Assembly (NCBI GenBank): GCA_044892525.1 | Contig: CM097885.1 | Span: 30,320,001-30,384,000, forward strand | From: Schmidtea polychroa | Lineage: Eukaryota | Direction of reading: 5' to 3' | DNA length: 64,000 bases | Shown: piece by piece, positions 2,400-64,000 of the stretch | Layout of the letters: the number at the start of each line of letters is the position of its first letter | How positions within the stretch are numbered: the stretch's first letter is position 1 | Made by a program: the position numbers and the translations under genes | The notes under the pieces: model-generated | Told to the model about the DNA's origin: nothing | Seen by the model: only the letters and a program-made list of their open reading frames with translations | Databases searched by the model: none

Positions 2400-12920
<10,521 letters not shown>

Positions 12921-15484: not shown

Positions 15485-15515
<31 letters not shown>

Positions 15516-23204: not shown

Positions 23205-23252
<48 letters not shown>

Positions 23253-31744: not shown

Positions 31745-32160
31745 TATTTCTTATATATTATTTCTTCTTGAGTTCTAGTTGTATCAACATTGTCCTCTGA
31801 CAGTTTTAATAGGCTTACTTAGATTAAAATTCAATTATTCCAAATCTTTCATTTAAAATTTATTTAAAATAATTGTTTGTTGAAAATTATTTTTAAAAAT
31901 AATTATTTAAAATTGTTTTTTATAATTTAAAAATTTTATAGATCTTATAATTTGTTTATAAATTATCAATATCCGTCGTGAATGTAGGTAACCTGATGAT
32001 GATAGTGATGCTATGGAAATATATAGTGAAAAAGATGTACGAATGACGATATATATATATTATTCCTAAAAATATAACGCGATGTTTAAAACAATTATCC
32101 ATAGCAAAGATTAGTTTTGTTTTTGTTTCGTTCCTAAACTTTTTCAATGTCATTTTTCAG

Positions 32161-38096
<5,936 letters not shown>

Positions 38097-38609
38097 AATT
38101 TTGTCAACTCGATTCGTTTTCGGTATTTTATTCCCGAATTTGTTTTTGAGTCTTCAATATAAATTATTAGAAAGATATTCATACTGATGGTAAAGGAGGT
38201 GGAAGGGGTGGGGGCGGTAATGAATTAACATTGTTATTAATTTAAGTGCACTTGATTATTCACTTGATATATTCAAAAAACTGATTACGTAATAATTTCC
38301 ATTATTCGAACAAACGATTTAAATGCGATTTAATTAATTTAATAATAATGATAATTATGCGTGCCAGCATTTATACTTATAATACTTTTTCTATATAATA
38401 ATATTTGTAACTTATAATACAATATATATTTTATTTATAAATTTGTTATTTCAATATTCCTAACAAACATTAAAATGTAGGAATTTTTGAACTTGAAGTA
38501 GTATACAAACCTTCGTACTGTAATTCACTTTGAAAAGTTACGAGAAGTAAATTAGGAATTGTTCAATCTCAAAATAGTAGGTAGAAGTGAGCCCACGATG
38601 ACTCATCGT

Positions 38610-38960
38610 TAAGGTCAACTTAAGGTCATAGAAAATTTTGAGGTCAACTTAAGGTCAAATTTTAAGGTCAATGTCATTTTCAGGTCAATTTAAGGTCAAT
38701 TTAAGCCATTTAAAGGTCAAATTCTGAGGTCAAAGTCGATTTTAGGCCATTTTAAGGTCAAATCTTGAGGTCAAAGTCGATTTTAGGCTATTTTAAGGTC
38801 AACTTCTGAGGCCAAAGTCTAATTTTTCCAAATTTTAAGGTCATAGGAAATTTTAAGGTCAACCCCCCTACCCCCTACCCCTATTTTTAAGGTCATAGAA
38901 AATTTTAAGGTCAACCCCCTACCCCCTACCCCTAATTTTAAGGTCAAATCAAGGTCAAAA
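38610..38960. repeat. Subterminal (A/G)AGGTCA repeat array with CCCCCTACCCCCTACCCC units; mirror at 48745-49212
   Basis: Seen directly; 2 C/G-tract units in the left arm and 4 in the right arm. Confidence 0.9.
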
Positions 38961-39464
38961 ATTAAAAATTTTCTAAGTCCATTTAACGAATTACTTTATA
39001 GAAAATTTTCAAAGTCAAAACACGTTTTAATACTACGTTTGCAAATGTCTTTGTTACTCATGCATTTGCATTGCAAATGTCTTTGTTACTCATGCACTTG
39101 TATTGCATATGTCTTTGTATTACACACCTTAAGGATAGAAAAATATTTCTAAGCGAGATCTAAAGTGAATGTGTGTAAAGGGCAATAAATAAGGGTAAAA
39201 TCAAAATTTTTTAAGAAAATACATGTAATTTGATTAAAATTTATGAAAACTATATATATATATATATTTGTTTTATTTTGGTCAGATAATCTATGTGTGT
39301 CTGTATATGAAAACATTGATAAGGAGCAATAAATAATGGACGGTTTTACTCACACACAAGTTTTATATCATTCGAAAGTCTACTATATATATAATACATA
39401 ATTGAATCGAATCAAAATAAGGGTAAAATAAATGGTAAAATAAAATGGTCATTATCAGACATTT

Positions 39465-39524
<60 letters not shown>

Positions 39525-39606
39525 ATCTATTTATTTTAAATAAAAATATGTAATTATGATCATAGTTAATTTAAGCACATATTTATTTCACTTTTCACAA
39601 AATAAT

Positions 39607-39656
39607 TTTAAAATACCACAACGTAATATATTTTCTATCTTAATTTTAATTGGCTG
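39607..39656 (+). promoter_or_regulatory. Putative pPolB promoter motif with inverted CCAAT; mirror at 48072-48121
   Basis: TTTTAAAATACC(A/G)CAACGTAATATATT..ATTTT(A/G)ATTGG is shared with element A (20395-20455); about 65 nt before the predicted ATG at 39718. Confidence 0.55.
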
Positions 39657-39717
39657 GAGAATAAAGTATGCTTTTCATTATAAACATTTTCATTATTACA
39701 AAATAACTTTAGAAATA

Positions 39718-42700
39718 ATGATCACAGACATCGATTACGAAAATGGTATTTTCATTATTTTTTAATTCATTTTAATATATATATATATATATTTATTTTC
39801 TAGATAGCGATTGTGTCATAATTGAAGAACATTTTGTTACTTCGATACCTGCAAACGAATATGGACGAAAAAGTTAAATAATAATAATTCATTGCTTATT
39901 CTTAATTGTCTTTTCCAGGAAATTTTAATGAGGATTCAGTTGATGATTCAGTTGCTTGTGCTGCTGGAACTATTGAATATTTCGCAAAGAAGATAAAATG
40001 TAAGTAAATTACAAAATTTAACTTAGATTTCTAGTTATATATTTCTTTGTTTAAGAAAATTTAAATTAGTAAAAAATGATATTTAATCAGATGTTAATAT
40101 TTAGATGAATTCATTTAAATAAATTTCTTAAAATTAATGAAAATTAGTAATATATTAATTATTAATTAAAATTAGTACAAAGTTAATATATTTACTGAAA
40201 TTATTTTTTAGACAATATTTTAATTATTGATAAGGAATATTATTTTTTACTATAAGTAACCTAATTATAGAAAAGATATTTATTATACCAGAAATAAACA
40301 GAATTCTGTCACTGATGTCAAATTAAAAAAATATAAACTTCTGCTTTTGATATCTCTGAGAATAATTTTCTAAAACAATTTTCATGAAAAATAGGTGAAG
40401 AAATTATATACTTTACCTGTTAAAGAAAAGTATGACTACAAAAACAATTGATGTTTCAGATTTTCAATATATAATATTAACAATTTTAATTGTATTATAA
40501 AAATTTCAGATTTGAAGATAAAAATGTTCATTTATGCAACTCAAATTTTTGCCCAAGTCCTTTGAAGCATAAATAATATACGTATCACATAAATACAAAT
40601 ATATTGATATATAAACTGAAAAAAAAAAGTACAAAGTTAATATATTTACTGAAATTATTTTTTTTAGACAATATTAATATAGTTATTGTTAGTTTATTTT
40701 AACTATATTACGACGATCAACTTTAATTTTATTATAAAAAAAAAATGATGAAAGTATAAATAAAACTTCATTTTAAAATCGAATTTTTATTTGCAATATT
40801 ATTTTTACATTAATCAACTAAGATGAGATTAATTTAAAATTTGATTGCATCACGAAACTTCTAGTATTTCATGTAAGTGAAATTAAAAGTATATGGATTG
40901 TTAAATAATTGTCATATTTCTATAGTTCTTTGTTTAAGAAAATTTAAAATAGTAAAAAAAAAATGATATTTAATCAGATGTTTATTGGTAAATATTTAGA
41001 TATTTAGATTTAGATTTAGATTTAAATAAATTTCTTAAAATTATTGAGAATTATTGAGACTTCCACTCCAAGGGCCATATATAATAAATTAGTACAAAGT
41101 TCAAATTTTAAATGAAATTTATTAGACAATATATATATTTTTTTAACTATATTAAGACGTTCAACATGAATTTTATTATAAAAAATAATGAAAGTATAAA
41201 TGAAACTTCATTTCAAAAATATGAATTGTGATAAAAAAAAAATTGAACAATTTTGAAATAACTAAGGGCATTCAATAATATTGTAACTCATTAAATAAAG
41301 TTTACATAGTGAGCTAAATGCTGCCCTTGTCCATTTTTATGGTGTATAGAGGTGAAAAATAAATTTAGATGCACAATGAAATTTAAAAGTGTAAATCTAT
41401 AAAAAGTTAAAATTTATAAAAAAAAAATTGAAAATTCGAAAAAATTAAAAATTGATGCATGTATGTACGTATGGCAAATAAAAAGACTAGCACAAATACA
41501 ATAAAATAAAATCATCTAGGACATCCACTTAATGATTTATTTTATGAATGATTATAATTGATTTTATCTTATTTTGAATTTGAATAAATAATTGAATATA
41601 CCCTGGACAAATTAACTTAATTATAAATTTTAATATATTAATAATTTTGGAATAATAATAATTAAGATAAATGATAATCAATAGAGATAAATGAATTACC
41701 GATAATATAAATGAAATTCAATATTATAAATAAACCATATAATTAAACCATTTAATGGTTAAAAATAAATAAAACATAAAACATAAAATAATAAAATAAA
41801 TATATTATAAAATTAAATAATTCCTTTTTATATTGCATTTCGCTATATAAACCAAGATCAAAATCAACCTTTCCGCCCATAAAAATATAAACTTTTGAGA
41901 GATGTTTATTGTTAAATATATTTAAAAAGAAACATAATAAAGCAATTGTAATTATTTAAGGCAATTTATACAAACAATGTTGCACCGCAAAAGAACATGA
42001 TGGGAAACAATGCCATGAAGCAATGGAAAAATACTATTTAAGAAATTATTATAATAAAAAATATTATTTATGCCCATTTTGCGAAGCTCTTTTCACTAAG
42101 CCCTATGAAATATTTTATAATGATCACAAAGATCATCTTACATATTTTAAATCTGATAAGAAAGAAATTTTTAAAAAATTATTTAATAACGGTATAATAG
42201 ACGTACCTACTAAAAAACAAAAACTTAATGATAACATCATCATTATAGATGAATCTGATGATGATGATGTTATCGTTATAGGTGAATCAAGGAATTTTTT
42301 AAATTATCAAATTGGTTGTGGATCAACTAATTTGATAGAAGATATTGAAGAATCAGTGGAAGAACCAGTGGAAGAACCGATGGAAGAACCTGTGGAAACG
42401 GAACAAATAGTAGAAGAGGACAATATATGGGATGATTTCCAGATTGTTAATGAATGGGAACCTACTGAAGAAGTCGAGATTGAATCTGACTTGAAAAATT
42501 GTCATAAAACAATTAAAATGTCGTTCAAAAACATGAATGAGATAAATCTACCCGAAAATTTCTCTGAGAAACTATTATCTACAATCAAGGAGATGAAAAC
42601 TGTGAAAGTTCAATTCGGGATAGAATGTGATTTCGAAAAGGATGGAGAATTCCAATCATCAAGATTTTCTAACAAAGCGGTGATGGTAACTGAGAACAAT

Positions 42701-43774
42701 TTTGAAAAGTTTATTGCAGATGGTATTGAAAAGCTGCACGAGAAAATTCATATCAGATCGGAACTTGGAAGCGGATGGCGTCTGATAAGAATAATTGAAA
42801 TAAATTTCAAAATAACTAAGATTTCCGAAATATCCAGATTATCCGGAAGAAATTATATTCCAACTCCGAAAGCCTTAATAAATAAAAATGCATTAATAAA
42901 TGTGATCAACGGAGATGATATGTGTTTCATATACAGTGTGCTAGCCAATTTGAAAAAAGATATCATTATTACTGATAATACAAATGTTGAAAATTATACA
43001 CAGTTCTTATCCGAATTGGTATATAATGAATTAGATATGCCAATGAAATTGAAGGACATTTCAAAATTCGAAAAGCATAACGAAGGAATTGCTATCAATG
43101 TCCTCAGTTACAATCCTAAAAATATGATTGATATCGATAATGTGGATATTATAATGAAACATCCACATATTGATATAATACATCGGACTAAAGTAACTGG
43201 GGTTACACCGATGTATTTACTATTGTTAGAATCGAATGGCCAATACCACTATACTGCAGTTCCAGATTTACAGCGATTAATGAATTGTAGAAAAACTCAT
43301 AGTTGCCCAGTCCGTATTCAATGCAGATGGTGCGAGACATGTTTAAATGGTTTTAGAAGAGAAGATGCTTTTGACAGGCATGTAGCTTTATGCAAGAAAA
43401 ACCAATTGGGCACAACATTATACACGTTGCCAGAAAACTCAGATTTAAAATTTAATGACTGGTCAAAAATGGTAACTCCGCCTTTTGTTATATATGCTGA
43501 CTTCGAAGCTGTTTTACCTCTTGATGAAATATGGGCTCAATCAATTTCCTCATTGGAGTCTCAGCTGCATACCAACAAGCACTGAGAAATTTTTAACATT
43601 GATAGCATGGCTGGGTAAATTTACAATAAGATTTATTTACTCATATCAGTTTGTCAATACTTCATTACATACTGCAGTAAAAACATTGAACGACTTGCCT
43701 TTGACCCGTTCAGTATTCAATACTGCAACCATCATAAACAACAAAGGAATTTTTCCTTATGATTTTGCCACAAG
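39718..43774 (+). pseudogene. Truncated pPolB, left copy. Predicted exons 39718-39745, 39804-39872, 39919-39999, 41961 onward; internal deletion and frameshift at 43529; stop at 43585
   Basis: ELGSGW, DMCFIYSVL, YHY, CETC..H..C and Exo I YADFEA present; after the deletion KYGLNQFPHW..KGIFPYDFAT continues in another frame. No polymerase motifs A/B/C. Confidence 0.9.
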
Positions 43775-46700
43775 TGAGGAAATTGATTGAGCCCATATTT
43801 CAAAATGTGATGTAGATCATACCCTTTCAGATTATGAAATACGATGGGTAATGTTTCTCTGATTTTCCTTTGTTGATTGCATACATTGCATGAGGCTCCG
43901 AGATATATGCCAGTGAAATGATCATGGTCTTTCACTTTCTCTGGCATTGGCTTTTTGCACAAGTAACAATTGACTGCTGTGTGGAATTGCAGCTTTTCCT
44001 GATTTGTCAAAAATTTCATTTGACAATGCCCTCTTGTCTTATAATAAACCTTCACTATATTGTTGACAATATTTTCTACATCCATCAGAAATCTGTATAC
44101 ACAATCTGGTCCAATAAAATGACTATATTTCGTTGACCCAGTAAAATTATTTACCAGTAACAGCCCCGCTGCTATAGGTAAATGTTTTTGGTGTTGTCTT
44201 TCATCAAGAGGTAAAACAGCTTCGAAGTCAGCATATATAACAAAAGGCGGAGTTACCATTTTTGACCAGTCATTAAATTTTAAATCTGAGTTTTCTGGCA
44301 ACGTGTATAATGTTGTGCCCAATTGGTTTTTCTTGCATAAAGCTACATGCCTGTCAAAAGCATCTTCTCTTCTAAAACCATTTAAACATGTCTCGCACCA
44401 TCTGCATTGAATACGGACTGGGCAACTATGAGTTTTTCTACAATTCATTAATCGCTGTAAATCTGGAACTGCAGTATAGTGGTATTGGCCATTCGATTCT
44501 AACAATAGTAAATACATCGGTGTAACCCCAGTTACTTTAGTCCGATGTATTATATCAATATGTGGATGTTTCATTATAATATCCACATTATCGATATCAA
44601 TTATATTTTTAGGATTGTAACTGAGGACATTGATAGCAATTCCTTCGTTATGCTTTTCGAATTTTGAAATGTCCTTCAATTTCATTGGCATATCTAATTC
44701 ATTATATACCAATTCGGATAAGAACTGTGTATAATTTTCAACATTTGTATTATCAGTAATAATGATATCTTTTTTCAAATTGGCTAGCACACTGTATATG
44801 AAACACATATCATCTCCGTTGATCACATTTATTAATGCATTTTTATTTATTAAGGCTTTCGGAGTTGGAATATAATTTCTTCCGGATAATCTGGATATTT
44901 CGGAAATCTTAGTTATTTTGAAATTTATTTCAATTATTCTTATCAGACGCCATCCGCTTCCAAGTTCCGATCTGATATGAATTTTCTCGTGCAGCTTTTC
45001 AATACCATCTGCAATAAACTTTTCAAAATTGTTCTCAGTTACCATCACCGCTTTGTTAGAAAATCTTGATGATTGGAATTCTCCATCCTTTTCGAAATCA
45101 CATTCTATCCCGAATTGAACTTTCACAGTTTTCATCTCCTTGATTGTAGATAATAGTTTCTCAGAGAAATTTTCGGGTAGATTTATCTCATTCATGTTTT
45201 TGAACGACATTTTAATTGTTTTATGACAATTTTTCAAGTCAGATTCAATCTCGACTTCTTCAGTAGGTTCCCATTCATTAACAATCTGGAAATCATCCCA
45301 TATATTGTCCTCTTCTACTATTTGTTCCGTTTCCACAGGTTCTTCCATCGGTTCTTCCACTGGTTCTTCCACTGATTCTTCAATATCTTCTATCAAATTA
45401 GTTGATCCACAACCAATTTGATAATTTAAAAAATTCCTTGATTCACCTATAACGATAACATCATCATCATCAGATTCATCTATAATGATGATGTTATCAT
45501 TAAGTTTTTGTTTTTTAGTAGGTACGTCTATTATACCGTTATTAAATAATTTTTTAAAAATTTCTTTCTTATCAGATTTAAAATATGTAAGATGATCTTT
45601 GTGATCATTATAAAATATTTCATAGGGCTTAGTGAAAAGAGCTTCGCAAAATGGGCATAAATAATATTTTTTATTATAATAATTTCTTAAATAGTATTTT
45701 TCCATTGCTTCATGGCATTGTTTCCCATCATGTTCTTTTGCGGTGCAACATTGTTTGTATAAATTGCCTTAAATAATTACAATTGCTTTATTATGTTTCT
45801 TTTTAAATATATTTAACAATAAACATCTCTCAAAAGTTTATATTTTTATGGGCGGAAAGGTTGATTTTGATCTTGGTTTATATAGCGAAATGCAATATAA
45901 AAAGGAATTATTTAATTTTATAATATATTTATTTTATTATTTTATGTTTTATGTTTTATTTATTTTTAACCATTAAATGGTTTAATTATATGGTTTATTT
46001 ATAATATTGAATTTCATTTATATTATCGGTAATTCATTTATCTCTATTGATTATCATTTATCTTAATTATTATTATTCCAAAATTATTAATATATTAAAA
46101 TTTATAATTAAGTTAATTTGTCCAGGGTATATTCAATTATTTATTCAAATTCAAAATAAGATAAAATCAATTATAATCATTCATAAAATAAATCATTAAG
46201 TGGATGTCCTAGATGATTTTATTTTATTGTATTTGTGCTAGTCTTTTTATTTGCCATACGTACATACATGCATCAATTTTTAATTTTTTCGAATTTTCAA
46301 TTTTTTTTTTATAAATTTTAACTTTTTATAGATTTACACTTTTAAATTTCATTGTGCATCTAAATTTATTTTTCACCTCTATACACCATAAAAATGGACA
46401 AGGGCAGCATTTAGCTCACTATGTAAACTTTATTTAATGAGTTACAATATTATTGAATGCCCTTAGTTATTTCAAAATTGTTCAATTTTTTTTTTATCAC
46501 AATTCATATTTTTGAAATGAAGTTTCATTTATACTTTCATTATTTTTTATAATAAAATTCATGTTGAACGTCTTAATATAGTTAAAAAAATATATATATT
46601 GTCTAATAAATTTCATTTAAAATTTGAACTTTGTACTAATTTATTATATATGGCCCTTGGAGTGGAAGTCTCAATAATTCTCAATAATTTTAAGAAATTT

Positions 46701-48010
46701 ATTTAAATCTAAATCTAAATCTAAATATCTAAATATTTACCAATAAACATCTGATTAAATATCATTTTTTTTTTACTATTTTAAATTTTCTTAAACAAAG
46801 AACTATAGAAATATGACAATTATTTAACAATCCATATACTTTTAATTTCACTTACATGAAATACTAGAAGTTTCGTGATGCAATCAAATTTTAAATTAAT
46901 CTCATCTTAGTTGATTAATGTAAAAATAATATTGCAAATAAAAATTCGATTTTAAAATGAAGTTTTATTTATACTTTCATCATTTTTTTTTTATAATAAA
47001 ATTAAAGTTGATCGTCGTAATATAGTTAAAATAAACTAACAATAACTATATTAATATTGTCTAAAAAAAATAATTTCAGTAAATATATTAACTTTGTACT
47101 TTTTTTTTTCAGTTTATATATCAATATATTTGTATTTATGTGATACGTATATTATTTATGCTTCAAAGGACTTGGGCAAAAATTTGAGTTGCATAAATGA
47201 ACATTTTTATCTTCAAATCTGAAATTTTTATAATACAATTAAAATTGTTAATATTATATATTGAAAATCTGAAACATCAATTGTTTTTGTAGTCATACTT
47301 TTCTTTAACAGGTAAAGTATATAATTTCTTCACCTATTTTTCATGAAAATTGTTTTAGAAAATTATTCTCAGAGATATCAAAAGCAGAAGTTTATATTTT
47401 TTTAATTTGACATCAGTGACAGAATTCTGTTTATTTCTGGTATAATAAATATCTTTTCTATAATTAGGTTACTTATAGTAAAAAATAATATTCCTTATCA
47501 ATAATTAAAATATTGTCTAAAAAATAATTTCAGTAAATATATTAACTTTGTACTAATTTTAATTAATAATTAATATATTACTAATTTTCATTAATTTTAA
47601 GAAATTTATTTAAATGAATTCATCTAAATATTAACATCTGATTAAATATCATTTTTTACTAATTTAAATTTTCTTAAACAAAGAAATATATAACTAGAAA
47701 TCTAAGTTAAATTTTGTAATTTACTTACATTTTATCTTCTTTGCGAAATATTCAATAGTTCCAGCAGCACAAGCAACTGAATCATCAACTGAATCCTCAT
47801 TAAAATTTCCTGGAAAAGACAATTAAGAATAAGCAATGAATTATTATTATTTAACTTTTTCGTCCATATTCGTTTGCAGGTATCGAAGTAACAAAATGTT
47901 CTTCAATTATGACACAATCGCTATCTAGAAAATATATATATATATATATATATTAAAATGAATTAAAAAATAATGAAAATACCATTTTCGTAATCGATGT
48001 CTGTGATCAT
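43732..48010 (-). pseudogene. Truncated pPolB, right copy (657-aa ORF 45705-43732 plus mirrored 5' exons from 48010)
   Basis: Identical to the left copy except M/I in NPKN(M/I)ID; continues through CYLC..DHDHFTG..CNVCN and Exo II FHNLKGYD; homology stops at FPH (43775). Confidence 0.9.
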
Positions 48011-48201
48011 TATTTCTAAAGTTATTTTGTAATAATGAAAATGTTTATAATGAAAAGCATACTTTATTCTCCAGCCAATTAAAATTAAGATAGAAAATAT
48101 ATTACGTTGTGGTATTTTAAAATTATTTTGTGAAAAGTGAAATAAATATGTGCTTAAATTAACTATGATCATAATTACATATTTTTATTTAAAATAAATA
48201 G

Positions 48202-48235
<34 letters not shown>

Positions 48236-49538
48236 AAATGTCTGATAATGACCATTTTATTTTACCATTTATTTTACCCTTATTTTGATTCGATTCAATT
48301 ATGTATTATATATATAGTAGACTTTCGAATGATATAAAACTTGTGTGTGAGTAAAACCGTCCATTATTTATTGCTCCTTATCAATGTTTTCATATACAGA
48401 CACACATAGATTATCTGACCAAAATAAAACAAATATATATATATATATATAGTTTTCATAAATTTTAATCAAATTACATGTATTTTCTTAAAAAATTTTG
48501 ATTTTACCCTTATTTATTGCCCTTTACACACATTCACTTTAGATCTCGCTTAGAAATATTTTTCTATCCTTAAGGTGTGTAATACAAAGACATATGCAAT
48601 ACAAGTGCATGAGTAACAAAGACATTTGCAATGCAAATGCATGAGTAACAAAGACATTTGCAAACGTAGTATTAAAACGTGTTTTGACTTTGAAAATTTT
48701 CTATAAAGTAATTCGTTAAATGGACTTAGAAAATTTTTAATTTTTGACCTTGATTTGACCTTAAAATTAGGGGTAGGGGGTAGGGGGTTGACCTTAAAAT
48801 TTTCTATGACCTTAAAAATAGGGGTAGGGGTAGGGGGGTTGACCTTAAAATTTTCTATGACCTTAAAAATAGGGGTAGGGGGTAGGGGGGTTGACCTTAA
48901 AATTTTCTATGACCTTAAAATTTTCTATGACCTTAATAATAGGGGTAGGGGTAGGGGGGTTGACCTTAAAATTTTCTATGACCTTAAAATTTGGAAAAAT
49001 TAGACTTTGGCCTCAGAAGTTGACCTTAAAATAGCCTAAAATCGACTTTGACCTCAAGATTTCACCTTAAAATGGCCTAAAATCGACTTTGACCTCAGAA
49101 TTTGACCTTAAAATGGCTTAAATTGACCTTAAATTGACCTGAAAATGACATTGGCCTTAAAATTTGACCTTAAGTTGACCTCAAAATTTTCTATGACCTT
49201 AAGTTGACCTTAACGATGAGTCATCGTGGGCTCACTTCTACCTACTACTGTATAATTTCTTTTGTTTTAATTGGATAAATTGCATGTTTTGTCAATTTGA
49301 CTTCAATAAAATAAACTGCACTACAACGTATATCGATTATTCTCTTATGTTTTCTCTTAGAAAATATAAAATTATACCAACACTAAAATATCACTTAAAA
49401 CCAAATTCAGCAAATTACGCTGTTACAGAATATCCTTCCCTGTGCTTTTCCTCTAATAGTGTCAAATCTGAAAGTATGTTGGGCTATATATTTTCTCTAT
49501 TTTGGCTATCTGCCAGATATATATTATTGAAACTGGTT

Positions 49539-50680
49539 AGTAGGTAGTTATTGGCTCCCTACCTCTAAAAAAATTGCGGAAACTCGTTTTTTTTTGCTTT
49601 TTTGATTACGTAATTGCGACAGGAAGCCACTCATATTTTTTTCAATACAAATAGAAGGGGCCTATAGAAAAGAGGCCATTGCGGCAGGAAGCCACTTAAA
49701 TTTTTTCAACACAAATAGAAGGGTCATATATAAAAAAATCAGGATTTCTCTGACTATACTCAGAAGATCTCGATGGAACCTGAGAATTTCAATGCAAAAA
49801 AGGGTCTACACTAAAAAGCCAAGGATTTTTCTGACTATAGTTGGGGAGGGGGTCTCATTGGTCCTGGGATTTTCAATACAAAATTCAATTATCACTAAAA
49901 AAGCATGGAATTTTCCAAGTACAGTTAAGGTGGGTCTCAATGGTCCTGGGATTTTCAATAGAAAAGTGGGTCTTCATTAAAATAGCATGGTAAATTTTTG
50001 AGTTACAGTAAATTATGGTGCAAATTTTTGAATTAAAGTTAATCAATGGTTTAAAATTTTAAAGTTAAAGTAATATTTTTAAATTAAGTAAATTAAAGTA
50101 AAAATTAAAAATAAAAGTAAATTAATGTAATAAGTAAATTAAAGTAAGATTTTTAAATTTATTAACAAAAAGTTGGAATAATAGTCGGTGTTTGAGAATT
50201 GAAAATTTTGATGAAATATTTTTTTAAGATAATTTTTAATGAAAATTTTTATGAAATATTTTTCCGTGTTAATTTTAGATGCAAATCTTTGTGAATTAAT
50301 CAATAACCACATGAAAGTATTGGTTAAATATGTAAATAAAGGTTATATTTGGTTGTTAAGTAAATTATGGTGTAAAATATTAAATTAAGTAATACAAGGA
50401 TAAATAAGCAAATTAAGGTTCAAATTTTTTAATTAAGTAATAAATGGTATAAAATTTTAAATTAAAGTAATTATTTTTAAATAAGTAATGTAATAAGTAA
50501 ATTAAAGCAAGATTTTTAAATTTATTAACAAAAAGTTTGAAGAACCAACAGCTTCTGAGAAATAAATTTTTTAATGTAAATTTTTATGAAATATTTTTTA
50601 GGTCAATATTTATTGAAAATTTTTATGAAATAATTTTCACAATCAATTTTAGATGCAAACTTTTGTCAATTAATCATAAA
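49539..50680 (+). mobile_element. Truncated end fragment of the A/C-type element
   Basis: Starts AGTAGGTAGTTATTGGCTCCCT, then the CTATAGT..GGGGGTCTC..TGGTCCTGGGATTTTCAATA block; 50275-50560 matches 15140-15460. Confidence 0.8.
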
Positions 50681-51306
50681 ATTGTGACAGGCTGTCAAAA
50701 AAATAGATTAATTGCCCAAACAAAATAGAAAAACAAAATACAATGAAAGCTACCAAAAGCAATTTGATGAAGAGATAATATAATTACGAGATGGATATAA
50801 AAGCTACTGGCAAATTGGTCGAAGAAAGAGTAAAAAAAGCGAATTTAACTTTACTGCTAACCAAATCATTTTGAATCTAGCCTACCCGTTGGAAGATATA
50901 TCAATACGCAGAGTAAAGAGTAAAAAGAGTAAAAAGTGGTGTAAACTGAAATTGTTTCATTAAAGTAAATCTAATTTATTTCATTAAATAAGTTTAATTG
51001 TGATAATTTCGAATAATTATTGTGTTGTTTAATTTGGGTTGTTTAATTTGCACCAAAATGACTTAAGTAATTTTAATTTTAAAAAATATTAAAAATTAAT
51101 AAATTAATAAATAAATTAATAAATGCTTTTCTAAAAAGATTTTTAAAGATTTATAGTAATTTTGTGTGGTAAATACATGAATGGAAATAATATGGAAATA
51201 ATAATAATTTAATTAAATATATAAAAACAAAATTTTTAATTTCGAATGCTTTAGATGTATAAAATGATGCACAATAAAAAGTAAAACAATAATAGAATAA
51301 TAGAAT

Positions 51307-53348: not shown

Positions 53349-53569
53349 TTAATACATTTTAGATTAAAAGATCGAATAATTTTAAAAAATGTTTTATCAT
53401 CATTTTGATATTAAATTCAATATATCATCACAGATTATTATAACAACAAATTCCAAAGACGGAATATTTCTCTTCGCTAATTCTAATCAACGCACAAAAT
53501 TTTATTGAACATGTTAGGCAATCGAAAATATTTCTCTACAGATCGTTACAAGCGCACTATAATTCCGGA

Positions 53570-53925
53570 TGATGATTCGTGCATTCTACAAACATATACT
53601 CGGCATTTCTATTTGATATACTGATCTAGAAAAAGAATACTATCAGTTTTTCCCTGGTTCGGAATTCCTATAGAAAAGGATGTTTTGACAATGCTTCTCT
53701 ATCAAACGTTTTCTATTCAAATATCAGAATTTGGACCGACAGAAACTCACTAGTACTACTCACAGAAGAAAATAAATCTGAATATGTTAAATTAGTTTGT
53801 CAAGAGAAAATGATTGGAGCTATTCACCAACAACTTCATAGTTTTCTCGAAGGGTTTTACGAAATCATACCCAAAAATTTGATCTCCATTTTCAATGAAA
53901 AAGAACTTGAACTACAAGTTTCAAG
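53570..53925 (+). pseudogene. Intronless HECT E3 ligase (HUWE1-like) fragment
   Basis: AFYKHILGISI*YTDLEKE and [51 protein letters not shown], with stops and frameshifts. Confidence 0.8.
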
Positions 53926-54739
53926 AGCTCGTTGACTTGAAGATAGTTATGGTCGATTACAGCGGAAAACAGCTGAAGAATGGAAACAGAAGTTCTGTAT
54001 CAAGTTTGTGACTTGCTGTAATGGAAAAAAAATTTTTTTTGTTAAATGTAACTACAAATTATTATTTTACATTTTATTATTTTATTATTATGCTTTTTCT
54101 TGGAGTAGCTTGTGTCGTTACCGCAATATGTATTCATGCCCAATATCGTTTGGATTTCAAATGAGCAATTTTAAGACAGTTAATAGAAAATTATTAAACT
54201 TTTAAAATTATTCATGTGAAAAATTACATTCTAATAATCATTCAAAAAAAATATTAAAAAGTATTTTTCCATTTCATTATTAAATATTTCTCTTTCATCT
54301 TCCTTGTAATAGAAATTCGATTTTCCAATATAACTAGCTTCCTATCTAAATGTTGAGTGTATCTTAATGATTGAAAGCTATCAATTATGCATTATTAGTA
54401 GGGAGTTAGTGGCCCACGGCAGCAATAGGGGGGGGGGGTAAAAAATGTTGCAAACTTTTGATTGCATAACTTTTTCCGTAGACATTTTTTGATTACATAA
54501 TTGTTGCCGTAATGCCCAATGTTTTCTGGGATTTTAAATACAAATTTTTTTTTTTTTTTTTTTTTTCAATAAACAAGCCAAGGATAAATATTATTTGGGT
54601 GGGTCTCCTTGGTCCTGAGAATTTCAATAGAAAAAGGTAGTCTTCAATAAAAAAGCATGGATTTTTCACACTATAGTGAGGGGATCTTCTTGGTCATGAG
54701 AATTTCAATAGAAAAGGTGGTTTACATTAAAAAACGCAT

Positions 54740-55400
54740 AGTAAATTTTTAAAATAAAGTAAATTATGGGTCTAAAATTTAAAAATAAAGTAAATGATGG
54801 GTCTAAAAATTTAAGTAAATCAAGGTTCAGATTTATTTTTGAAATAAAGTAAATTATGGTCTAAATAAGTAAATTATGGGCTAAGATTTTTCAATTAAAG
54901 TAAATAATGGTTCTAAAAAATTAAATTACAGTAAATTATGGTCCAAATTTTTAAATTAAAGTAAATTATGGTTCTTAAAAATTAAATTAAAGTAAATTAT
55001 GGTTCTTAAAAATTAAATTAAAGTAAATTATGGTCAAAATTTTTGAATTACAGTCCAAAAATTTAAATTAAAGTAAATTATGATCCAAATTTTTAAATTA
55101 AAGTAAATAATGGTTCTAAAAAATTAAATTAAAGTAAATAATGGTCCAAATATTTTAAATTACAGTAAATAATGGTTCTAAAAATTAAATTACAGTAAAT
55201 AATGGTCAAAAATTTTAAAATTAAAGTAAATTATGGTTCTAAAAATTAAATTAAAGTTAATTAAGGTCCAAATTTTAAAATTAAATAATCAATGGTAAAA
55301 AAAAATTTAAATTAAAGTTAAATAAGTAAATTAAAGTAATAATTTTTAAATAAGTAAATTAAAGTAATGTAATAAGTAAATTAAAGTAAGATTTTTAAAT
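54740..55400. repeat. Subterminal tandem array of about 30-bp units (AATTAAAGTAAATTATGGT..)
   Basis: Seen directly; inverted homologue of 25250-26265. Confidence 0.9.
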
Positions 55401-55575
55401 TTATTAACAAAAATAGAAGGTGTTTGAGAATTGAAATTTTTTAATGGAAATTTTAATGAATTATTTTTTAAGTAATTTTTAATAGAAATTTTTATGAATA
55501 ATTTTCAATGGTAATTTTTAATGGAAATTTTAATAGAATAATTTTTAAGATAATTTTTAATGAAAATTTTTATGA

Positions 55576-55625
<50 letters not shown>

Positions 55626-55798
55626 TAATATTAATAATATATCAACCAAATACTATACAACACATAAAAAATTAACTAAACACATAAAAATAACTAGACA
55701 CATAACAAAACATATAAACATTAACTAAACACATAAAAATGAACTAGACACATAACAAACATAAAAATTTACCAAATAACAAATGTAAAGATATAAAA

Positions 55799-55804
55799 TT
55801 TATT
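55799..55804 (-). terminator. Putative polyadenylation signal of pPolB
   Basis: AATAAA on the minus strand 8 nt after the stop codon, followed by a T/GT-rich tract (55790-55640). Confidence 0.5.
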
Positions 55805-55812
55805 CAATAAAA

Positions 55813-58800
55813 TTAGTCCTCATCGGACAAAATAACGTCATCGATATCGATGTCATCTTCTCCAAAATCTTCATTTAATTCTTCCTCATCTTCTCCATCA
55901 TTTTCTCCAACATTTTCTGAAACATTTTCTGCAACAATTTCTCCAACATTTTCTCCAATATTTAATTCACTTAATCTTACATGCCCATATGCAAGACTAG
56001 TATTTTGCCCCACCCAAACCCTTTTGTCATCTTTGTTAGTTAGTGCTATTTTTGTGTTTTTAATTGTAAAAATTTGATGATTTTTGCTTGTTATTTTAGT
56101 CTGAGGAACCGAAAAAATCTGGTTAGTGTTATAACAATCCAGGTATGACTGATGTTTTATGTCACTACCTTTCAATGTTACACCTTTAGCCTTTTTTGTT
56201 TCCTCATCACCCAACAAGCTATAACATTTAGGTCTAAGAAAAACCCACTCCTTATATTTAAGACCTTTATTCTCGTCTTTGAACTTTCCAATGACTGAAT
56301 CAAGGTTCTTACTATATAAGGAATGACAACTATTGTAATTGGAAGTATCCAATAAATTATCTCGAACCATTGCAGGTAAAAGAACCTCAAGTTTGCAGTT
56401 AATGACTTCGAGGAAAAAAGAATCTGTATCACCTGCAACGATATTAATTTTACAATTAAACTCATTGCGAAATGATTCCAGATCCTTATATTGCAATTCA
56501 TACATTCTAAGTTTAGATAGATCAAGTACAGATTGACCAATGTAACTCGGTCTATCTAAACATATAGAATCGGAATTCAATAGTGCTGCAATTAAATTAT
56601 CTGCTATTTTAATAGATTTTTTAAAAGTCGGTTTTGACGAATATTTAACTAATTTACCGGCAGTTGTACAAAGACGAAGATTCATTCTTCTCTTTAAATT
56701 TTCAACTGTTTTGCCGTATAAACTATTATTTAGCAATTTATAATAATTTTTATCTAAGCTATTTACGCTTTTTGATCTTAATTCGGTATTTGTATCTATA
56801 TATTTTTTAAAAATTGGTGATTGCTTAAATCTTACACCCCTATTTACACGTGTTACTTTAACACCAAGTTCCAAATATAATTTTAATAATCTCCAATGAA
56901 TAACATAATTAGATTTTGGAAGATGAGTTAATAATAATTTTTCAACCTTAGACCCAGCAGGTTTCATTTTTTCAGCAGCTACAGGGAAATCATCCAACTT
57001 ATCATGAAGCTCAGAAGGAATTACAAGATCAACTTCAAGTGTGTATCCATAAGACAAAGATTCAAGATTTAAATTCCTACATTCATCCATTATTTTATCA
57101 AATCCATCAAGAACCCAACAAAATTCGCCACAAGGTAATGATTGACTTAAAGCCCAGCCATAAAGATTATTAATATCTATATATAGTAACTCAGTGTTCT
57201 CGTCGGTTTTTACGTAATGCTTATTCACAAAAGTAAGACCGCCTCTTATTCCACCCTCATAAAAGCTAAACATTTCGTTTTCAGTTATGAGTTCAATTGG
57301 TTCATTTAAAGACATTAATGCAGAAGACCAAGACATGCCTGGAATTCCGAAATAATTCAATGGTTCCAATCTATTGTGAGCAATGGATTTCAACCGAAAC
57401 TGATGAAAGAAATCAGCCAAAAGAAAACAATCAAGTTTTAGGTAGATCATCATATAATCTAATAAAGTTACGCAATTAGTTTCTACCCAAATCTCCTGAG
57501 CTTTTTCATACTCAAGCTCAGTGACACCCTCCCAGATTGGTGGTAATTCATAAGTAGTTTGGAGAATATCTAAAGAAGTGGCGAAATTATAAGGGAAGAT
57601 TCCTTTTTCACTTACTATGGTGCCAGAAAAAGCAGAATTAGTAAAAGGCAAAGAATTCAAAGTTTTGACTGCTTTAGCCAAAGAATCATTGACAAATTGA
57701 TACGAATCAATGAATCTTAGGCTAATTTTACCTAAATGCGCAATCAAAGATATAAATTTTTCCGTAGTTATTGGGATGCACCCTAAATTCCAATTTTTAA
57801 ATTTATTTAATCCATATTTAAGTATATGGTGCATATCGTATCCCTTCAAGTTGTGAAATACGATAGGCAAAATTTTATTTATTTTCCTATTTACGTTACA
57901 TGTGCTACAAGCTGCACCCAAGTATTTCCCCGTAAAATGATCGTGATCTCTAACAGGATCGACGATAGATTTCATACAAAGATAACAAACAGATGCACTA
58001 ACAAATTGACGTTGTTCAATTTTTGTTAATTTCATCATAGGTTTCCTATCCATTTTATAATAAAAAGGAAGAACCTTATTTAATGCTATATCCTCTATAG
58101 CACTTAAAAAACTCTCGACGCAATCTAAACCTATGAACTGCTGATAAGATTTAGATCCGTCAAAGTTATTTACAAGTAAAAGACCAGCAGATATTGGCAT
58201 GTGTCGTTGGAAATGATCATTATCAGAAGGTAAAATAGCCTCAAAATCTGCATAAACTACAAAAGGAGGAGTTACTGTTTTCGACCAGTCAGTAAACTGT
58301 AATAATTTATTTTGAGGGAAGGTGTAAAGAGTTGTTCCTAATTGATTACGTTTACATAATATTTCATGTTTTTCTAGTGCGTGTTTATTATTAAACCCAT
58401 TCAAACACCGATGGCACCATAATGAACGTATGCGTGTAGGACAACTAGTGTTGATATGACAATTCATTAACTTATTTAAATTACTTATAGCAACGTAATG
58501 GAAATTGTTTCCTTTATTTAATAATAGTAAATTAATTACAGTTCCATTTAAAACTTTGGAACGATGTATAATATCTAAATGTGGGTGTTTTAATACGTAA
58601 TTATCTATTAATTGTTTGTTATTGTCATAAGAAAAAACGTTAATTATTAAGCCTGGATTTTTGGCCTCGAATTTTCTAATATCTTTTAATTTCATGGGTA
58701 AGTCCAATGGATTATATATTAATTCAGATAAATTATAACTGGATGTCCTATTTCTAGCATAACTACTAACCTCATCATATTTTAAAATAGCTAAAATGCT

Positions 58801-60154
58801 ATATAAAAAACATGAATCATCGGTGTTTTTTATATTAATTAAACAATATTTATTTTTTAGATAAGTAGGTGTTTCAATGAAACTCCTACCACTTAATCTA
58901 CTTAGCCTACTTATTTTTGTTATGGTGAAATGTATTTCAGTGATATTTTTTATATTCCAACTGCTTCCTAACTCAGTAATATTAGTAATTTTCTCATTTA
59001 ATTCCTTAATGCCTTCATCAAAAAATGATGCAGTTAAAGGCTTTGCATAATTTGAGATATTATTAACCTTTATTTCCCCGTCTTTTTCAAATTCGATTGT
59101 TATTCCGAATTGAATTTTGACGGAGCCTAATTCGTTAATAATATCTCGTAATTTTTTTATTAGTTGTTCAGGAAATATTATTTCTTTTATATTTAAGTCG
59201 CTTGTATTTAAGCTTAATATTTGATGGGTACCTCTTAGATCTTTTTGTATTATTGGAACATTTCCACCTATTTGTATTATATTTAATCCATCCCAAGAGT
59301 CAAGGGAAATATTATCTAATCCAACCTGGGATTCAACAACCAATCCATCATGGGATTCGACAACCAATCCATCATTGGATTCCACAAAAGGCAATCCGAC
59401 CTGGGATTCAAAAGAAGAAGTATCTAATTTAATTTTTTTATTTTTATTATTTTTTTCTATAGTTGAGGGTCTTTTAAAAACACTATCTTTTTTAAAATTA
59501 AACCTATCTAAATGATTTTTATGTTTATTATAAAAAACGCTATATGTTACGGGGTCACTAGTCTTACATACGGGACATATAAAATAAGTTTTATTATAAT
59601 ATTTTTTCGTATAATAATTCTCCATTATAGAATGGCAATTATTATCATGTTCTTTCGATGAACAATAATTTGGGTAAAGTATACCTATAAAATAAAAATT
59701 TAATAAAAAAAATATAATTTAAATGAAATATTTTAGTAAATGTTTACGCAAAAATTTGCAAATTATTATTATTTTACAAATTTTATTTACTAAAAAATAA
59801 AAATTTACTAAATTAAAAATATTAACATTTACTTAAATAAAAAATTATATTAAATTTCCTTTAAATTATAAAAAGTAATCAATACTTACATTGTAAATTT
59901 TCATTTCGATTTATTGACACATTGACATAATTTTTTTCTTTATTCGTATTACCTAAATTATTAATTAATTAAATCAATAAATTAAAAATTATGTTTACTT
60001 TTTCTTTTCAAATTTCCTTTAATCTTAGATTTTAAATTGTCTTCATTAATATTATCTAAATTAATTAATAAATTAATTAATAAATAAATTAAAATTTACC
60101 AAATTTCTGAATTTTTTCTCGGACATTCATAACGTTTTCTATTAAAGAATTCAT
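55813..60154 (-). CDS. polB: Intact protein-primed family B DNA polymerase (Polinton/Maverick type). Exons 60154-60100, 60055-59999, 59952-59890, 59684-55813; predicted 1348 aa (1270-aa ORF from 59625)
   Basis: Exo I YADFEA, Exo II FHNLKGYD, Exo III YLKLD, KGIFPY, Pol A YIDINNLYG, Pol B KLLNNSLYGK, Pol C GDTDS, RPKCY, KAKGV, DDKR; endonuclease VII-like insert DHDHFTGKYLGAACSTCN. Three GT-AG introns splice in frame. Confidence 0.95.
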
Positions 60155-60746
60155 TTTTAAAGGTTAACTATTTGTTAAATGTGACTAATGATTGATTATT
60201 GTTTATAGATTATTATTGTTTATAGATTATTATTGTTCATAGGAACAAATTCTAACCAATCAAAATCAAGGAAGGGTAGGAAAAAATTAATTTATTTTAA
60301 AACACATTTTGACGCTAAAGTTGACTTATTTAACATTTTCATAATAATTTAATAAAAATAATGTGATGAACCCACAAAGTAATATCATTTTTCATCAAAT
60401 TGTAAAACAGTAATAACGTTTTCATAAAATTGTAACAAAGTAATAACATATTTCAGATAATTTTTCAACAGTTGTAAAATATTTAAGCAAATTGTAACAA
60501 GATTAGAAAATATTACAACAAAGTAGTAACATATTTCAGAAAATTTCAACAAATTTGTAAAATATTTATCAAATTGTAACTAAAATAATAAAAATATTGC
60601 AACAAAGTAATAAAATAATAATGGTAATTAAGACAAATCAATACATTATTTCGAAGACGGACAACAAATTAAAAAGAATATTGTAACTAAAATAATAAAA
60701 ATATTGCAACAAAGTAATAAAATAATACAACATTTTAAACTCTAGA

Positions 60747-61160
60747 TCAATCCATTTTATAGAAAATTAAATTCTATCTATATAATATATGAATAAATAT
60801 CCAAGGAAATTACGTTAACGTATAATAAATACAAATTTATCGTAAAAACATGTGTGTATTACACACAAAACAAGATACATAATTTCTAATCAATCCATTT
60901 TATAGAAAATTAAATTTTATCTATATATTATATGAATAAAATCCTAAGAAAATTACGTTAACTGTATGAAAAATACAAATTTATCATAAAAACATGTGTG
61001 TATTACACACAACATACGAGACATAATTTTTAATCAAGCTATTTTATAGAAAATTAAATTTTATCTATATATTATATGAATAAAATCCTAAGAAAATTAC
61101 GTTAACCGCGCGAAAAATACAAATTTATTGTAAAAACATGTGTGCATTACACACAAAGTA
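60747..61160. repeat. Three tandem units of about 143 bp next to the axis; mirror at 61290-61700
   Basis: Units start at about 60747, 60890 and 61034; each has TACGTTAAC and a TGTG(TG)..TTACACACA mini-hairpin. Confidence 0.9.
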
Positions 61161-61179
61161 TCAAACTGAAATTGTAATT

Positions 61180-61267
61180 GCGCCATGTTGTAGAGAATTA
61201 AATTCTCCCTATACATGGTTACACTTAAATCTCGATCAGACATGTGAAAAGAGACATAAAAGATAAA
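61180..61267. other. Asymmetric central spacer with an internal imperfect hairpin (61183-61218)
   Basis: CCATGT-TGTA-GAGAATT-A-AATTCTC-CCTAT-ACATGG folds back on itself. Confidence 0.75.
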
Positions 61268-62120
61268 AATTACAATTTCAGTTTGATACTTTGTGTGTAA
61301 TGCACACATGTTTTTACAATAAATTTGTATTTTTCGCGCGGTTAACGTAATTTTCTTAGGATTTTATTCATATAATATATAGATAAAATTTAATTTTCTA
61401 TAAAATAGCTTGATTAAAAATTATGTCTCGTATGTTGTGTGTAATACACACATGTTTTTATGATAAATTTGTATTTTTCATACAGTTAACGTAATTTTCT
61501 TAGGATTTTATTCATATAATATATAGATAAAATTTAATTTTCTATAAAATGGATTGATTAGAAATTATGTATCTTGTTTTGTGTGTAATACACACATGTT
61601 TTTACGATAAATTTGTATTTATTATACGATAACGTAATTTCCTTGGATATTTATTCATATATTATATAGATAAAATTTAATTTTCTATAAAATGGATTGA
61701 TCTAGAGTTTAAAATGTTGTATTATTTTATTACTTTGTTGCAATATTTTTATTATTTTAGTTACAATATTCTTTTTAATTTGTTGTCCGTCTTCGAAATA
61801 ATGTATTGATTTGTCTTAATTACCATTATTATTTTATTACTTTGTTGCAATATTTTTATTATTTTAGTTACAATTTGATAAATATTTTACAAATTTGTTG
61901 AAATTTTCTGAAATATGTTACTACTTTGTTGTAATATTTTCTAATCTTGTTACAATTTGCTTAAATATTTTACAACTGTTGAAAAATTATCTGAAATATG
62001 TTATTACTTTGTTACAATTTTATGAAAACGTTATTACTGTTTTACAATTTGATGAAAAATGATATTACTTTGTGGGTTCATCACATTATTTTTATTAAAT
62101 TATTATGAAAATGTTAAATA

Positions 62121-62195
62121 AGTCAACTTTAGCGTCAAAATGTGTTTTAAAATAAATTAATTTTTTCCTACCCTTCCTTGATTTTGATTGGTTAG
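62121..62195 (+). promoter_or_regulatory. Putative pPolB promoter motif; mirror at 60252-60326
   Basis: TTTAGCGTCAAAATGTGTTTT..TTCC(T/A)TGATTTTGATTGGTTAG is shared with element A (20352-20455); about 100 nt before ATG 62293. Confidence 0.6.
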
Positions 62196-62292
62196 AATTT
62201 GTTCCTATGAACAATAATAATCTATAAACAATAATAATCTATAAACAATAATCAATCATTAGTCACATTTAACAAATAGTTAACCTTTAAAA

Positions 62293-64000
62293 ATGAATTC
62301 TTTAATAGAAAACGTTATGAATGTCCGAGAAAAAATTCAGAAATTTGGTAAATTTTAATTTATTTATTAATTAATTTATTAATTAATTTAGATAATATTA
62401 ATGAAGACAATTTAAAATCTAAGATTAAAGGAAATTTGAAAAGAAAAAGTAAACATAATTTTTAATTTATTGATTTAATTAATTAATAATTTAGGTAATA
62501 CGAATAAAGAAAAAAATTATGTCAATGTGTCAATAAATCGAAATGAAAATTTACAATGTAAGTATTGATTACTTTTTATAATTTAAAGGAAATTTAATAT
62601 AATTTTTTATTTAAGTAAATGTTAATATTTTTAATTTAGTAAATTTTTATTTTTTAGTAAATAAAATTTGTAAAATAATAATAATTTGCAAATTTTTGCG
62701 TAAACATTTACTAAAATATTTCATTTAAATTATATTTTTTTTATTAAATTTTTATTTTATAGGTATACTTTACCCAAATTATTGTTCATCGAAAGAACAT
62801 GATAATAATTGCCATTCTATAATGGAGAATTATTATACGAAAAAATATTATAATAAAACTTATTTTATATGTCCCGTATGTAAGACTAGTGACCCCGTAA
62901 CATATAGCGTTTTTTATAATAAACATAAAAATCATTTAGATAGGTTTAATTTTAAAAAAGATAGTGTTTTTAAAAGACCCTCAACTATAGAAAAAAATAA
63001 TAAAAATAAAAAAATTAAATTAGATACTTCTTCTTTTGAATCCCAGGTCGGATTGCCTTTTGTGGAATCCAATGATGGATTGGTTGTCGAATCCCATGAT
63101 GGATTGGTTGTTGAATCCCAGGTTGGATTAGATAATATTTCCCTTGACTCTTGGGATGGATTAAATATAATACAAATAGGTGGAAATGTTCCAATAATAC
63201 AAAAAGATCTAAGAGGTACCCATCAAATATTAAGCTTAAATACAAGCGACTTAAATATAAAAGAAATAATATTTCCTGAACAACTAATAAAAAAATTACG
63301 AGATATTATTAACGAATTAGGCTCCGTCAAAATTCAATTCGGAATAACAATCGAATTTGAAAAAGACGGGGAAATAAAGGTTAATAATATCTCAAATTAT
63401 GCAAAGCCTTTAACTGCATCATTTTTTGATGAAGGCATTAAGGAATTAAATGAGAAAATTACTAATATTACTGAGTTAGGAAGCAGTTGGAATATAAAAA
63501 ATATCACTGAAATACATTTCACCATAACAAAAATAAGTAGGCTAAGTAGATTAAGTGGTAGGAGTTTCATTGAAACACCTACTTATCTAAAAAATAAATA
63601 TTGTTTAATTAATATAAAAAACACCGATGATTCATGTTTTTTATATAGCATTTTAGCTATTTTAAAATATGATGAGGTTAGTAGTTATGCTAGAAATAGG
63701 ACATCCAGTTATAATTTATCTGAATTAATATATAATCCATTGGACTTACCCATGAAATTAAAAGATATTAGAAAATTCGAGGCCAAAAATCCAGGCTTAA
63801 TAATTAACGTTTTTTCTTATGACAATAACAAACAATTAATAGATAATTACGTATTAAAACACCCACATTTAGATATTATACATCGTTCCAAAGTTTTAAA
63901 TGGAACTGTAATTAATTTACTATTATTAAATAAAGGAAACAATTTCCATTACGTTGCTATAAGTAATTTAAATAAGTTAATGAATTGTCATATCAACACT
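62293..64000 (+). CDS. polB: Second (mirror) copy of pPolB, open to the window end. Exons 62293-62347, 62392-62448, 62495-62557, 62763 onward
   Basis: Reverse complement of 60154-58447; ATG GAG AAT (MENYY) at 62822. Absent from the ORF track, presumably because no stop falls in the window. Confidence 0.9.

Follow-up and report, generated by a model that had tools for sequence, protein, structure and literature searches.

Evidence for an old, structured and conserved site at the centre of a polymerase-bearing palindromic Polinton derivative

The centre of a polymerase-bearing palindromic derivative of a Polinton is, on the evidence of its sequence and of public contigs, an old, structured and conserved site. 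The region 60747-61700 of the window (the whole 64,000-nt stretch of Schmidtea polychroa DNA that was analysed) is the axis of a long inverted duplication. Its observed features are two mirror-image arms, of which the left encodes an intact pPolB and has a Polinton-type end, and an 88-nt loop that is old, structured and found across the family. Related elements seem to retain this short central loop, a hint that it is a turning point built in for copying and not a chance break. The best model, to which we assign a probability of about 0.55, is that the element is a polymerase-only palindromic derivative of a Polinton/Maverick that replicates by a snap-back cycle and turns at a dedicated axis inherited from its family.

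Over 2,733 positions, the two arms (58447-61179 and 61268-64000) show 2 mismatches, at 60774/61673 and 60818/61629. The left array, on the plus strand, consists of unit 1 at 60747-60889 (143 nt), unit 2 at 60890-61033 and unit 3 at 61034-61177 (144 nt each), and its mirror on the minus strand places three units within 61268-61700 (units at about 61270-61700). The units are 83-90% identical to one another. Unit 3 matches unit 2 at 114 of 123 positions in its body and at 12 of 21 in its tail, and these diverged final ~21 nt form the stem that closes the loop. The preliminary description had reported mirrored repeats around an 88-nt spacer with a hairpin at 61183-61218, and this is confirmed with small corrections. 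Three repeats per side are indeed present, but the internal palindromes ascribed to the repeats are not found in every unit: TACGTTAACGTA occurs a single time, at 60811, with its mirror copy bearing one of the two arm mismatches and units 2 and 3 holding only its first 9 letters, while the TGTGTG palindrome TGTGTGTATTACACACA is exact in units 1 and 2 (60851 and 60995) and carries one change in unit 3. Windows of 36 nt over the TGTGTG palindromes of the units fold as well as the spacer hairpin (-6.0 vs -5.9 kcal/mol), and short AT-rich inverted matches of 5-6 nt connect unit ends with unit interiors.

The asymmetric spacer at 61180-61267, to which no strand is assigned, aligns colinearly with each of the units over about 85 nt, scoring above 500 of 500 shuffles for all three, and its reverse complement does no better against the units than shuffles do (8-90 of 500 reach the score). 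The spacer is therefore, as judged from this alignment, an old, diverged fourth unit of the 143/144-bp array that also forms the snap-back hairpin loop; its identity to the units is 58-62%, against 83-90% between units, and it is likewise old relative to the near-identical arms. Being repeat-derived, it is not unrelated DNA, an adapter or filler. Within the loop, the bulged hairpin at 61183-61218 (plus strand) folds at -5.9 kcal/mol as DNA, a value reached by 7 of 1,000 mononucleotide shuffles for a segment that was chosen post hoc. The folding check proposed in the preliminary description thus bears out the hairpin, although folding of the full 88 nt is no more than modest (z -1.9; 9 of 200 dinucleotide shuffles). 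Compared with units 2 and 3, two double changes in the hairpin make or keep pairs (61187/61214 and 61195/61205), and 7 of 9, 7 of 9 and 8 of 10 differences from units 1, 2 and 3, respectively, fall at paired positions. When the differences were placed randomly, equal energy was obtained in 18, 16 and 22 of 3,000 trials for units 1, 2 and 3, figures that are somewhat overstated because the segment was picked as foldable. These comparisons favour the view that the substitutions in the spacer mostly build its hairpin. The G that most contigs carry at 61207 loses one pair of the best fold, though a fold that leaves this base unpaired is only 0.6 kcal/mol less stable. Viral contigs contained no exact match to a 24-nt pattern from the spacer.

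Other copies of the family are represented in public contigs. Those of four runs (X1, X2, X4 and X5, from 2 studies with organism labels A and B; 24 runs listed) were aligned on 53500-64000 at 85% likeness. The common G allele at spacer site 61207 was found in 108 contigs of X1, 44 of X4, 51 of X5 and 23 of X2, and since this site is covered by many G-bearing contigs in all four runs, the spacer is family-wide and polymorphic. Summed contig depth, which is no copy number and may include other organisms, reaches 19,446 at this site in X2 as opposed to 151 at the arm sites 48 and 62 bp away, with non-coding arm sites in the same run ranging from 66 to 151. Arm bins of X2 away from the axis lie at 34-194, one polymerase bin excepted; polymerase core bins lie at 4,400-58,700, and depth near the terminus is a weaker 1,000-1,650 or so. 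The excess in the two axis bins corresponds to about 90 bases at spacer depth. Arm depths of 66-151 fit a small set of near-identical copies, and an abundant, more diverged population is seen in the polymerase core, more weakly near the terminus, and at the spacer. Given this peak over low arm depth, the loop is the best-retained non-coding site seen in the X2 relatives. The earlier suggestion that the axis is not a random breakpoint is accordingly supported on four counts, namely a spacer older than the arms, substitutions that favour the hairpin, coverage in four of four runs and the X2 peak.

The same contigs bear on whether other copies turn at this site. The ratio of spacer depth to the summed depth of arm sites 61112 and 61329 was 0.72 in X1, 0.80 in X4 and 1.74 in X5, where 0.5 is expected if all copies are palindromes. 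One contig (X4 record 23, 85% identical) spans unit 3 and the spacer; its match ends at 61250 and is followed by 161 letters with no demonstrated fit to the mirror arm. None of the 15 joints listed (727 further joints) changes strand, no contig among those listed spans the right junction at 61267/61268, and none of the 24 loose ends listed (6,181 further) lies near 61180-61267. The term turnaround in the preliminary description therefore holds in part: a snap-back cycle with protein priming would accommodate it, but the 15 joints listed include no second copy that turns here.

The left arm is present in full, as far as an AGTAG terminus at 54397. The terminal segment 54397-54420 (plus strand) starts with AGTAGG, which we take to be Polinton-type by the AGT-repeat convention. 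The start AGTAGG[T/G]AG recurs in the window at 38576, 49246 (minus strand), 49539 and 26629 (minus strand), and flank contigs of two studies (X4 record 18 and X5 record 28) match up to exactly 54397 and then continue into other sequence. The insertion-site DNA at 54057-54397 is itself repeated, with a depth of 734 in X4 compared with 25-56 for the other listed contigs. Between the terminus and the polymerase, the subterminal region at 54421-55812 (no strand assigned) contains tandem repeats of ~81 bp and 30/31 bp that are common to other elements of the window; it is 75-78% identical to 25040-26640 over about 900 bp, and its longest stop-to-stop frame is 66 aa. On the axial side of the gene, a putative polymerase promoter module with a CCAAT word and a TGACGC word lies at 60240-60350 (minus strand), about 0.9-1.0 kb (about 0.97 kb) from the axis, its promoter role being suggested by position alone. 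It is followed at 60426-60746 by degenerate ~83-bp tandem repeats, without assigned strand (self-match of 60426-60620 with 60509-60727, 73%), which lead up to the 143-bp array. Beyond the axis, 61701-64000 (plus strand) mirrors the promoter, the leader exons and the first ~420 polymerase codons, with the mirror-arm leader ATG at 62293. The right arm is visible for 2.7 kb, to the window end at 64000; from symmetry, its terminus is predicted at 68050, outside the window, for a total of 13,654 bp (~13.7 kb).

The polymerase is the one substantial gene of the element, and in each arm it points outwards from the axis. Its intact main exon at 55813-59684 (minus strand) was recognised by its open frame, its motifs, Pfam matches on a sub-stretch and homologues. 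The frame 55813-59718 (minus strand) comprises 1,301 codons from stop to stop, and its mirror begins at 62729. Motifs located in it include vOTU-type Cys/His, Exo I-III, an endonuclease VII/HNH-like insert, Pol A-C and KxY. PF03175 and PF02945 matched a sub-stretch, the only scale at which the polymerase family is visible, as the whole stop-to-stop frame gave 0 Pfam families at E 0.001. Of 534 homologues, the closest reaches 59% identity and the closest with a name, an adintovirus PolB, 33%; a PDB sequence search with the polymerase alignment gave 0 matches. Three leader mini-exons are predicted from splicing on the minus strand at 60100-60154, 59999-60055 and 59890-59952, with introns of 44, 46 and 205 nt, all in phase 1, and an open frame into the main exon; the leader is predicted to begin at ATG 60154. 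Several metagenomic relatives also have apparent mini-exon leaders, and by eye the CCAAT word of the putative promoter (60240-60260) is present upstream of the polymerase in two of them (L003, at its start, and L019, at about 170-190 and 310-330). Some public contigs have joints that skip parts of the polymerase gene, about 980 bp in window 55985-56970 (X1 and X4) and 209 bp in window 56470-56680 (X4, X5 and X2); these short-sided joints suggest internally deleted family members.

Apart from the polymerase and one frame nested inside it, 54397-64000 holds no separate ORF of at least 100 aa, the longest other frames of the element being 60-88 aa. Integrase, packaging ATPase, protease and capsid genes were not found in 54397-64000, where a gene split into very small exons could escape, and the same stretch has no candidate ORF for an HUH Rep/NS1 nickase. 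A search of 54000-64000 against Rfam gave 0 matches at E <= 0.1. The window as a whole is eukaryotic and AT-rich, and includes parts of F-box/LRR genes of host type, one fragment of a HECT domain and two of hAT transposases, at 32115-38096, 53630-53935, 4442-5047 and 35533-35988.

Two further palindromes are present in the window. The element at 38575-49247 has AGTAG ends and a related polymerase (43-56% identical) that points inwards, and its inner arms differ at 4 of 4,034 positions. The polymerase is truncated at the centre of this element, which is 669 nt long, falls within that gene and sits at a 28-bp inverted match (43525-43552/43775-43802). From its sequence, this element is a clear snap-back product, with the 28-bp match probably marking an accidental template switch. 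Its terminus lies about 1 kb upstream of its own polymerase promoter, where the studied element has its axis. Homology between the 143-bp units and this terminus region was considered and rejected, as only the words TTTATAGAAAATT and TGTATTACACAC are shared and blastn returned AT-rich noise. Autonomous Polintons/Mavericks have a 6-bp target-site duplication; inspection of the flanks of this element by eye gave no matching 6-mers. About 290 bp from its right end is a lone terminus fragment (49539-50690) with an AGTAG start and 81-bp and 30/31-bp repeats. The other palindrome, at 15160-23680 with a terminus at 26629, is older and gene-less, its arms being 73-97% alike and the left one carrying ~1.5 kb extra. 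It shares termini, subterminal repeats and the promoter module with the studied element, the 60240-60350 module being 82-92% identical to 17964-18087 and 20333-20455. With its inner inverted pair at about 19580-19640/20261-20324, it also turns just upstream of the promoter module, at a different sequence, and no centre common to it and the 88-nt spacer was found. A comparison of axes had been proposed as a check: within the window, the two other palindromes have unrelated centres; in contigs, the spacer itself is family-wide. The unrelated centres mean that the 88-nt loop is not required by every palindromic Polinton derivative.

More distant relatives were sought in environmental data. A scan of IMG/VR with the single polymerase protein found no relative, whereas the polymerase alignment found 13 distant loci there, and 80 of 464 were kept from a metagenome scan. 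Long mirror arms were seen in 0 of these 93 related loci, which are mostly short contigs with polymerases only about 30% identical, and neither axis nor terminus DNA had a match in these mostly short loci. One contig with a distant polymerase (30%) ends downstream of the gene in a 166-nt, 95% palindrome (L047, 4776-4941), which could be either a natural hairpin end or an assembly fold-back. Another, of 6.5 kb (L090, 1-6543), has terminal inverted repeats of 272 bp, encodes a distant polymerase along with two further ORFs, and looks like a complete small linear element.

A history and a cycle can be proposed for such an element. An ancestor would have folded back within the tandem array just upstream of the polymerase promoter, losing everything beyond the fold and acquiring a second copy of the remaining end. 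In the proposed cycle, the polymerase would prime on its own terminal-protein domain at either of the identical ends and displace one strand, which, because it is self-complementary along its whole length, would snap back into a ~6.8-kb hairpin with an open end serving as a new duplex origin and a closed end formed by the 88-nt loop. Re-initiation at the open end and copying through the loop would regenerate the palindrome with no cut at the axis, and integration would use an integrase supplied by full-length Polintons of the same genome. Selection may maintain the loop; its simplest role would be that of a structured single strand shielding the closed end or easing passage of the polymerase, although the exact role is a guess. 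By analogy, the cycle may be seen as extending the panhandle route for displaced strands, a popular published model for which direct evidence is described as lacking in the available part of its source (PMC11886824), and the fold-back model for polintons as cited in part of a recent report (10.64898/2026.07.28.741278). In weighing a dedicated axis, the contig spanning unit 3 and the spacer and the gene-less palindrome turning at the same promoter module were counted in favour, while the spacer-to-arm depth above 0.5, the G at 61207, the unrelated centres, the 0 of 93 loci and the 2.7-kb right arm were counted against. A bolder version, which we offer only tentatively, is a one-gene 'hairpin Polinton' whose true genome would be the ~6.8-kb half, with one protein-primed end and a closed, sequence-specific loop, the integrated form being its palindromic dimer. 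Sub-families and host species would then have the loop in common as a conserved cis-acting turnaround, which the endonuclease VII-like domain might recognise or nick, and the polymerase would also serve the many gene-less palindromic satellites of the genome.

A possible but less probable alternative is that the segment with the hairpin serves ordinary, non-palindromic Polintons of this family as a conserved cis-element (such as one for regulation, or one associated with an origin, upstream of the promoter) that stalls the polymerase and provokes template switching, the copy seen here or a small sub-family being a defective product of snap-back at this hot spot. Spacer depth at or above arm depth, rather than half of it, and the departure of X4 record 23 from the reference at 61250 would be expected under such a scheme, as would the neighbouring snap-back product at 38575-49247 with its terminus ~1 kb upstream of the promoter, matching the axis position here; the 5-6 nt AT-rich inverted matches could act as seeds, and fold-back priming is a known route to inverted duplications according to the portions consulted of two sources (PMC3907307; PMC10622511). 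However, the tail of unit 3, which is the closing stem, is as diverged from units 1 and 2 as the spacer is (12 of 21), which suits a long-standing stem-plus-loop module, and the 24 listed loose ends include none at the spacer. A one-off fold-back placed randomly in a decayed terminal array unit, with an incidental hairpin, is improbable and already weakened. The nature of the spacer as a degenerate fourth repeat, the modest fold of the whole spacer and the three different centres of the three palindromes in the window would all agree with such an accident. It is opposed by the pair-building substitutions in the hairpin and by the fact that, of the non-coding sites in X2, the one covered best falls in the loop.

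That the axis is a true resolution site, at which cleavage of the cruciform or loop by a nuclease (possibly the endonuclease VII/HNH-like insert of the polymerase, or a junction nuclease of the host) frees hairpin genomes of half length, in the manner of poxvirus or parvovirus concatemer junctions, is very unlikely. The motif in the polymerase and the repeats with internal palindromes placed symmetrically about the axis speak for this, yet the endonuclease VII-like domain is also scored in relatives, including the adintovirus PolB, and is hence not special to the palindromic layout; the element has no further ORF of at least 100 aa, and in place of a near-perfect palindrome the junction has an asymmetric loop of 88 nt. 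The preliminary description had proposed such a site and compared it to parvoviruses and poxviruses, a parallel that is left unsupported by the open Polinton-type terminus, the pPolB, the single-gene content and the asymmetric loop. Flip/flop isomers, which belonged to the same comparison, provide no usable test: because the arms are identical, a flipped spacer is the same as the whole element inserted in the opposite orientation, so the distinction is not meaningful for an integrated element, and the isomers find no support. An assembly or amplification artefact derived from fold-back chimeric reads is just as hard to credit. It would account for arms that are almost identical and for a right junction spanned by no listed contig, but the arms differ at two sites, the spacer is native repeat-derived DNA found in four of four runs, and in the other two palindromes of the window the arms have diverged (73-97%) and contain indels, a pattern that chimeras would not give.

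Among known systems, the element is closest in its parts to Polintons/Mavericks of the adintovirus-like kind, whose pPolB has a TP-vOTU-Exo-Palm layout as given in the available portions of PMC11071308, 10.1101/2023.08.22.554363 and 10.64898/2026.07.28.741278; the first of these is the source of the pPolB domain names and describes inserted homing-type endonucleases in polinton polymerases. It shares with them all catalytic motifs, the vOTU-type Cys/His, the inserted endonuclease, the AGTAG end and the subterminal repeats. It differs in that its fully visible half is without integrase, ATPase, protease and capsid genes, in that the whole half-element is an inverted repeat with a duplicated polymerase, and in having a conserved 88-nt loop as its centre. 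The element works like a Polinton and, because those genes are absent, fails membership as an autonomous one. Of the features of a snap-back defective of a protein-primed replicon, the mirror arms and the loss of genes can be observed here; the parent and the right end lie outside the data.

The closest functional parallels may be two sets of linear plasmids. Kikuchi et al. in 1985 reportedly described deletion derivatives of Kluyveromyces pGKL1, the hairpin plasmid F2 and its inverted dimer F1, in which a protein-primed linear replicon is said to be cut to one end region, giving a hairpin form and a palindromic dimer whose two ends are identical and carry protein. Unlike the studied element, these are said to be cytoplasmic laboratory derivatives with a perfect hairpin, not integrated, not a high-copy family and with no conserved loop. 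Qin and Cohen in 2000 reportedly obtained palindromic Streptomyces linear plasmids from intra-strand annealing, where fold-back would similarly rescue a terminal-protein replicon as a long palindrome with one end present twice; these are bacterial, with an internal replication origin and accidental centres. Poxvirus and parvovirus hairpin termini and concatemer junctions also have tandem repeats beside the turn, but there a near-perfect palindrome is resolved by a dedicated enzyme into flip/flop isomers, whereas the studied element has an asymmetric loop, an open Polinton end and no gene for a dedicated enzyme. Instead of the near-perfect palindromic junction with few extra-helical bases of the poxvirus type, its spacer is an asymmetric 88 nt, and instead of a separate resolvase ORF there is the endonuclease VII-like insert within the polymerase, general to relatives. 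AAV uses parvoviral hairpin priming and Rep nicking, unlike the studied element. Its snapback, self-complementary genomes, with one end type duplicated, are by-products of vector preparations according to part of the source (PMC10924063), and together with the hairpin plasmids of Cladophorales they may be considered looser parallels. Hairpins have been proposed for replication in the latter, with whole-molecule fold-back, although these are plastid gene-bearing single-stranded molecules (10.1101/145037, in part), and in the terminal palindromes of Halocafeteria virophages and PLVs, which are short and at the ends of elements mostly without pPolB (10.64898/2026.07.28.741278, in part). The words palindrome and hairpin are absent from the available portion of 10.1101/2023.08.22.554363, and titles and the starts of abstracts, in a literature coverage that leaves out most subscription papers and supplements, contain no description of palindromic Polintons or of a conserved axis.

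Polintons are modelled as copying themselves by way of a single strand that folds back on its terminal repeats, and for protein-primed replicons generally, direct evidence for fold-back intermediates is described as lacking in the part of PMC11886824 that was available. A natural, high-copy element that is all inverted repeat, with an intact polymerase and a conserved loop, makes the fold-back model testable. Under the model, one would expect hairpin DNA of half length with protein bound at one end, concerted change of the two arms of each copy, and a turning point at a fixed position. Should the spacer instead be an ordinary cis-element where fold-back has a hot spot, it would still be a conserved non-coding site of Polintons. 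If the dedicated, inherited axis is true, it would show how a virus-like element could become a minimal, plasmid-like parasite.
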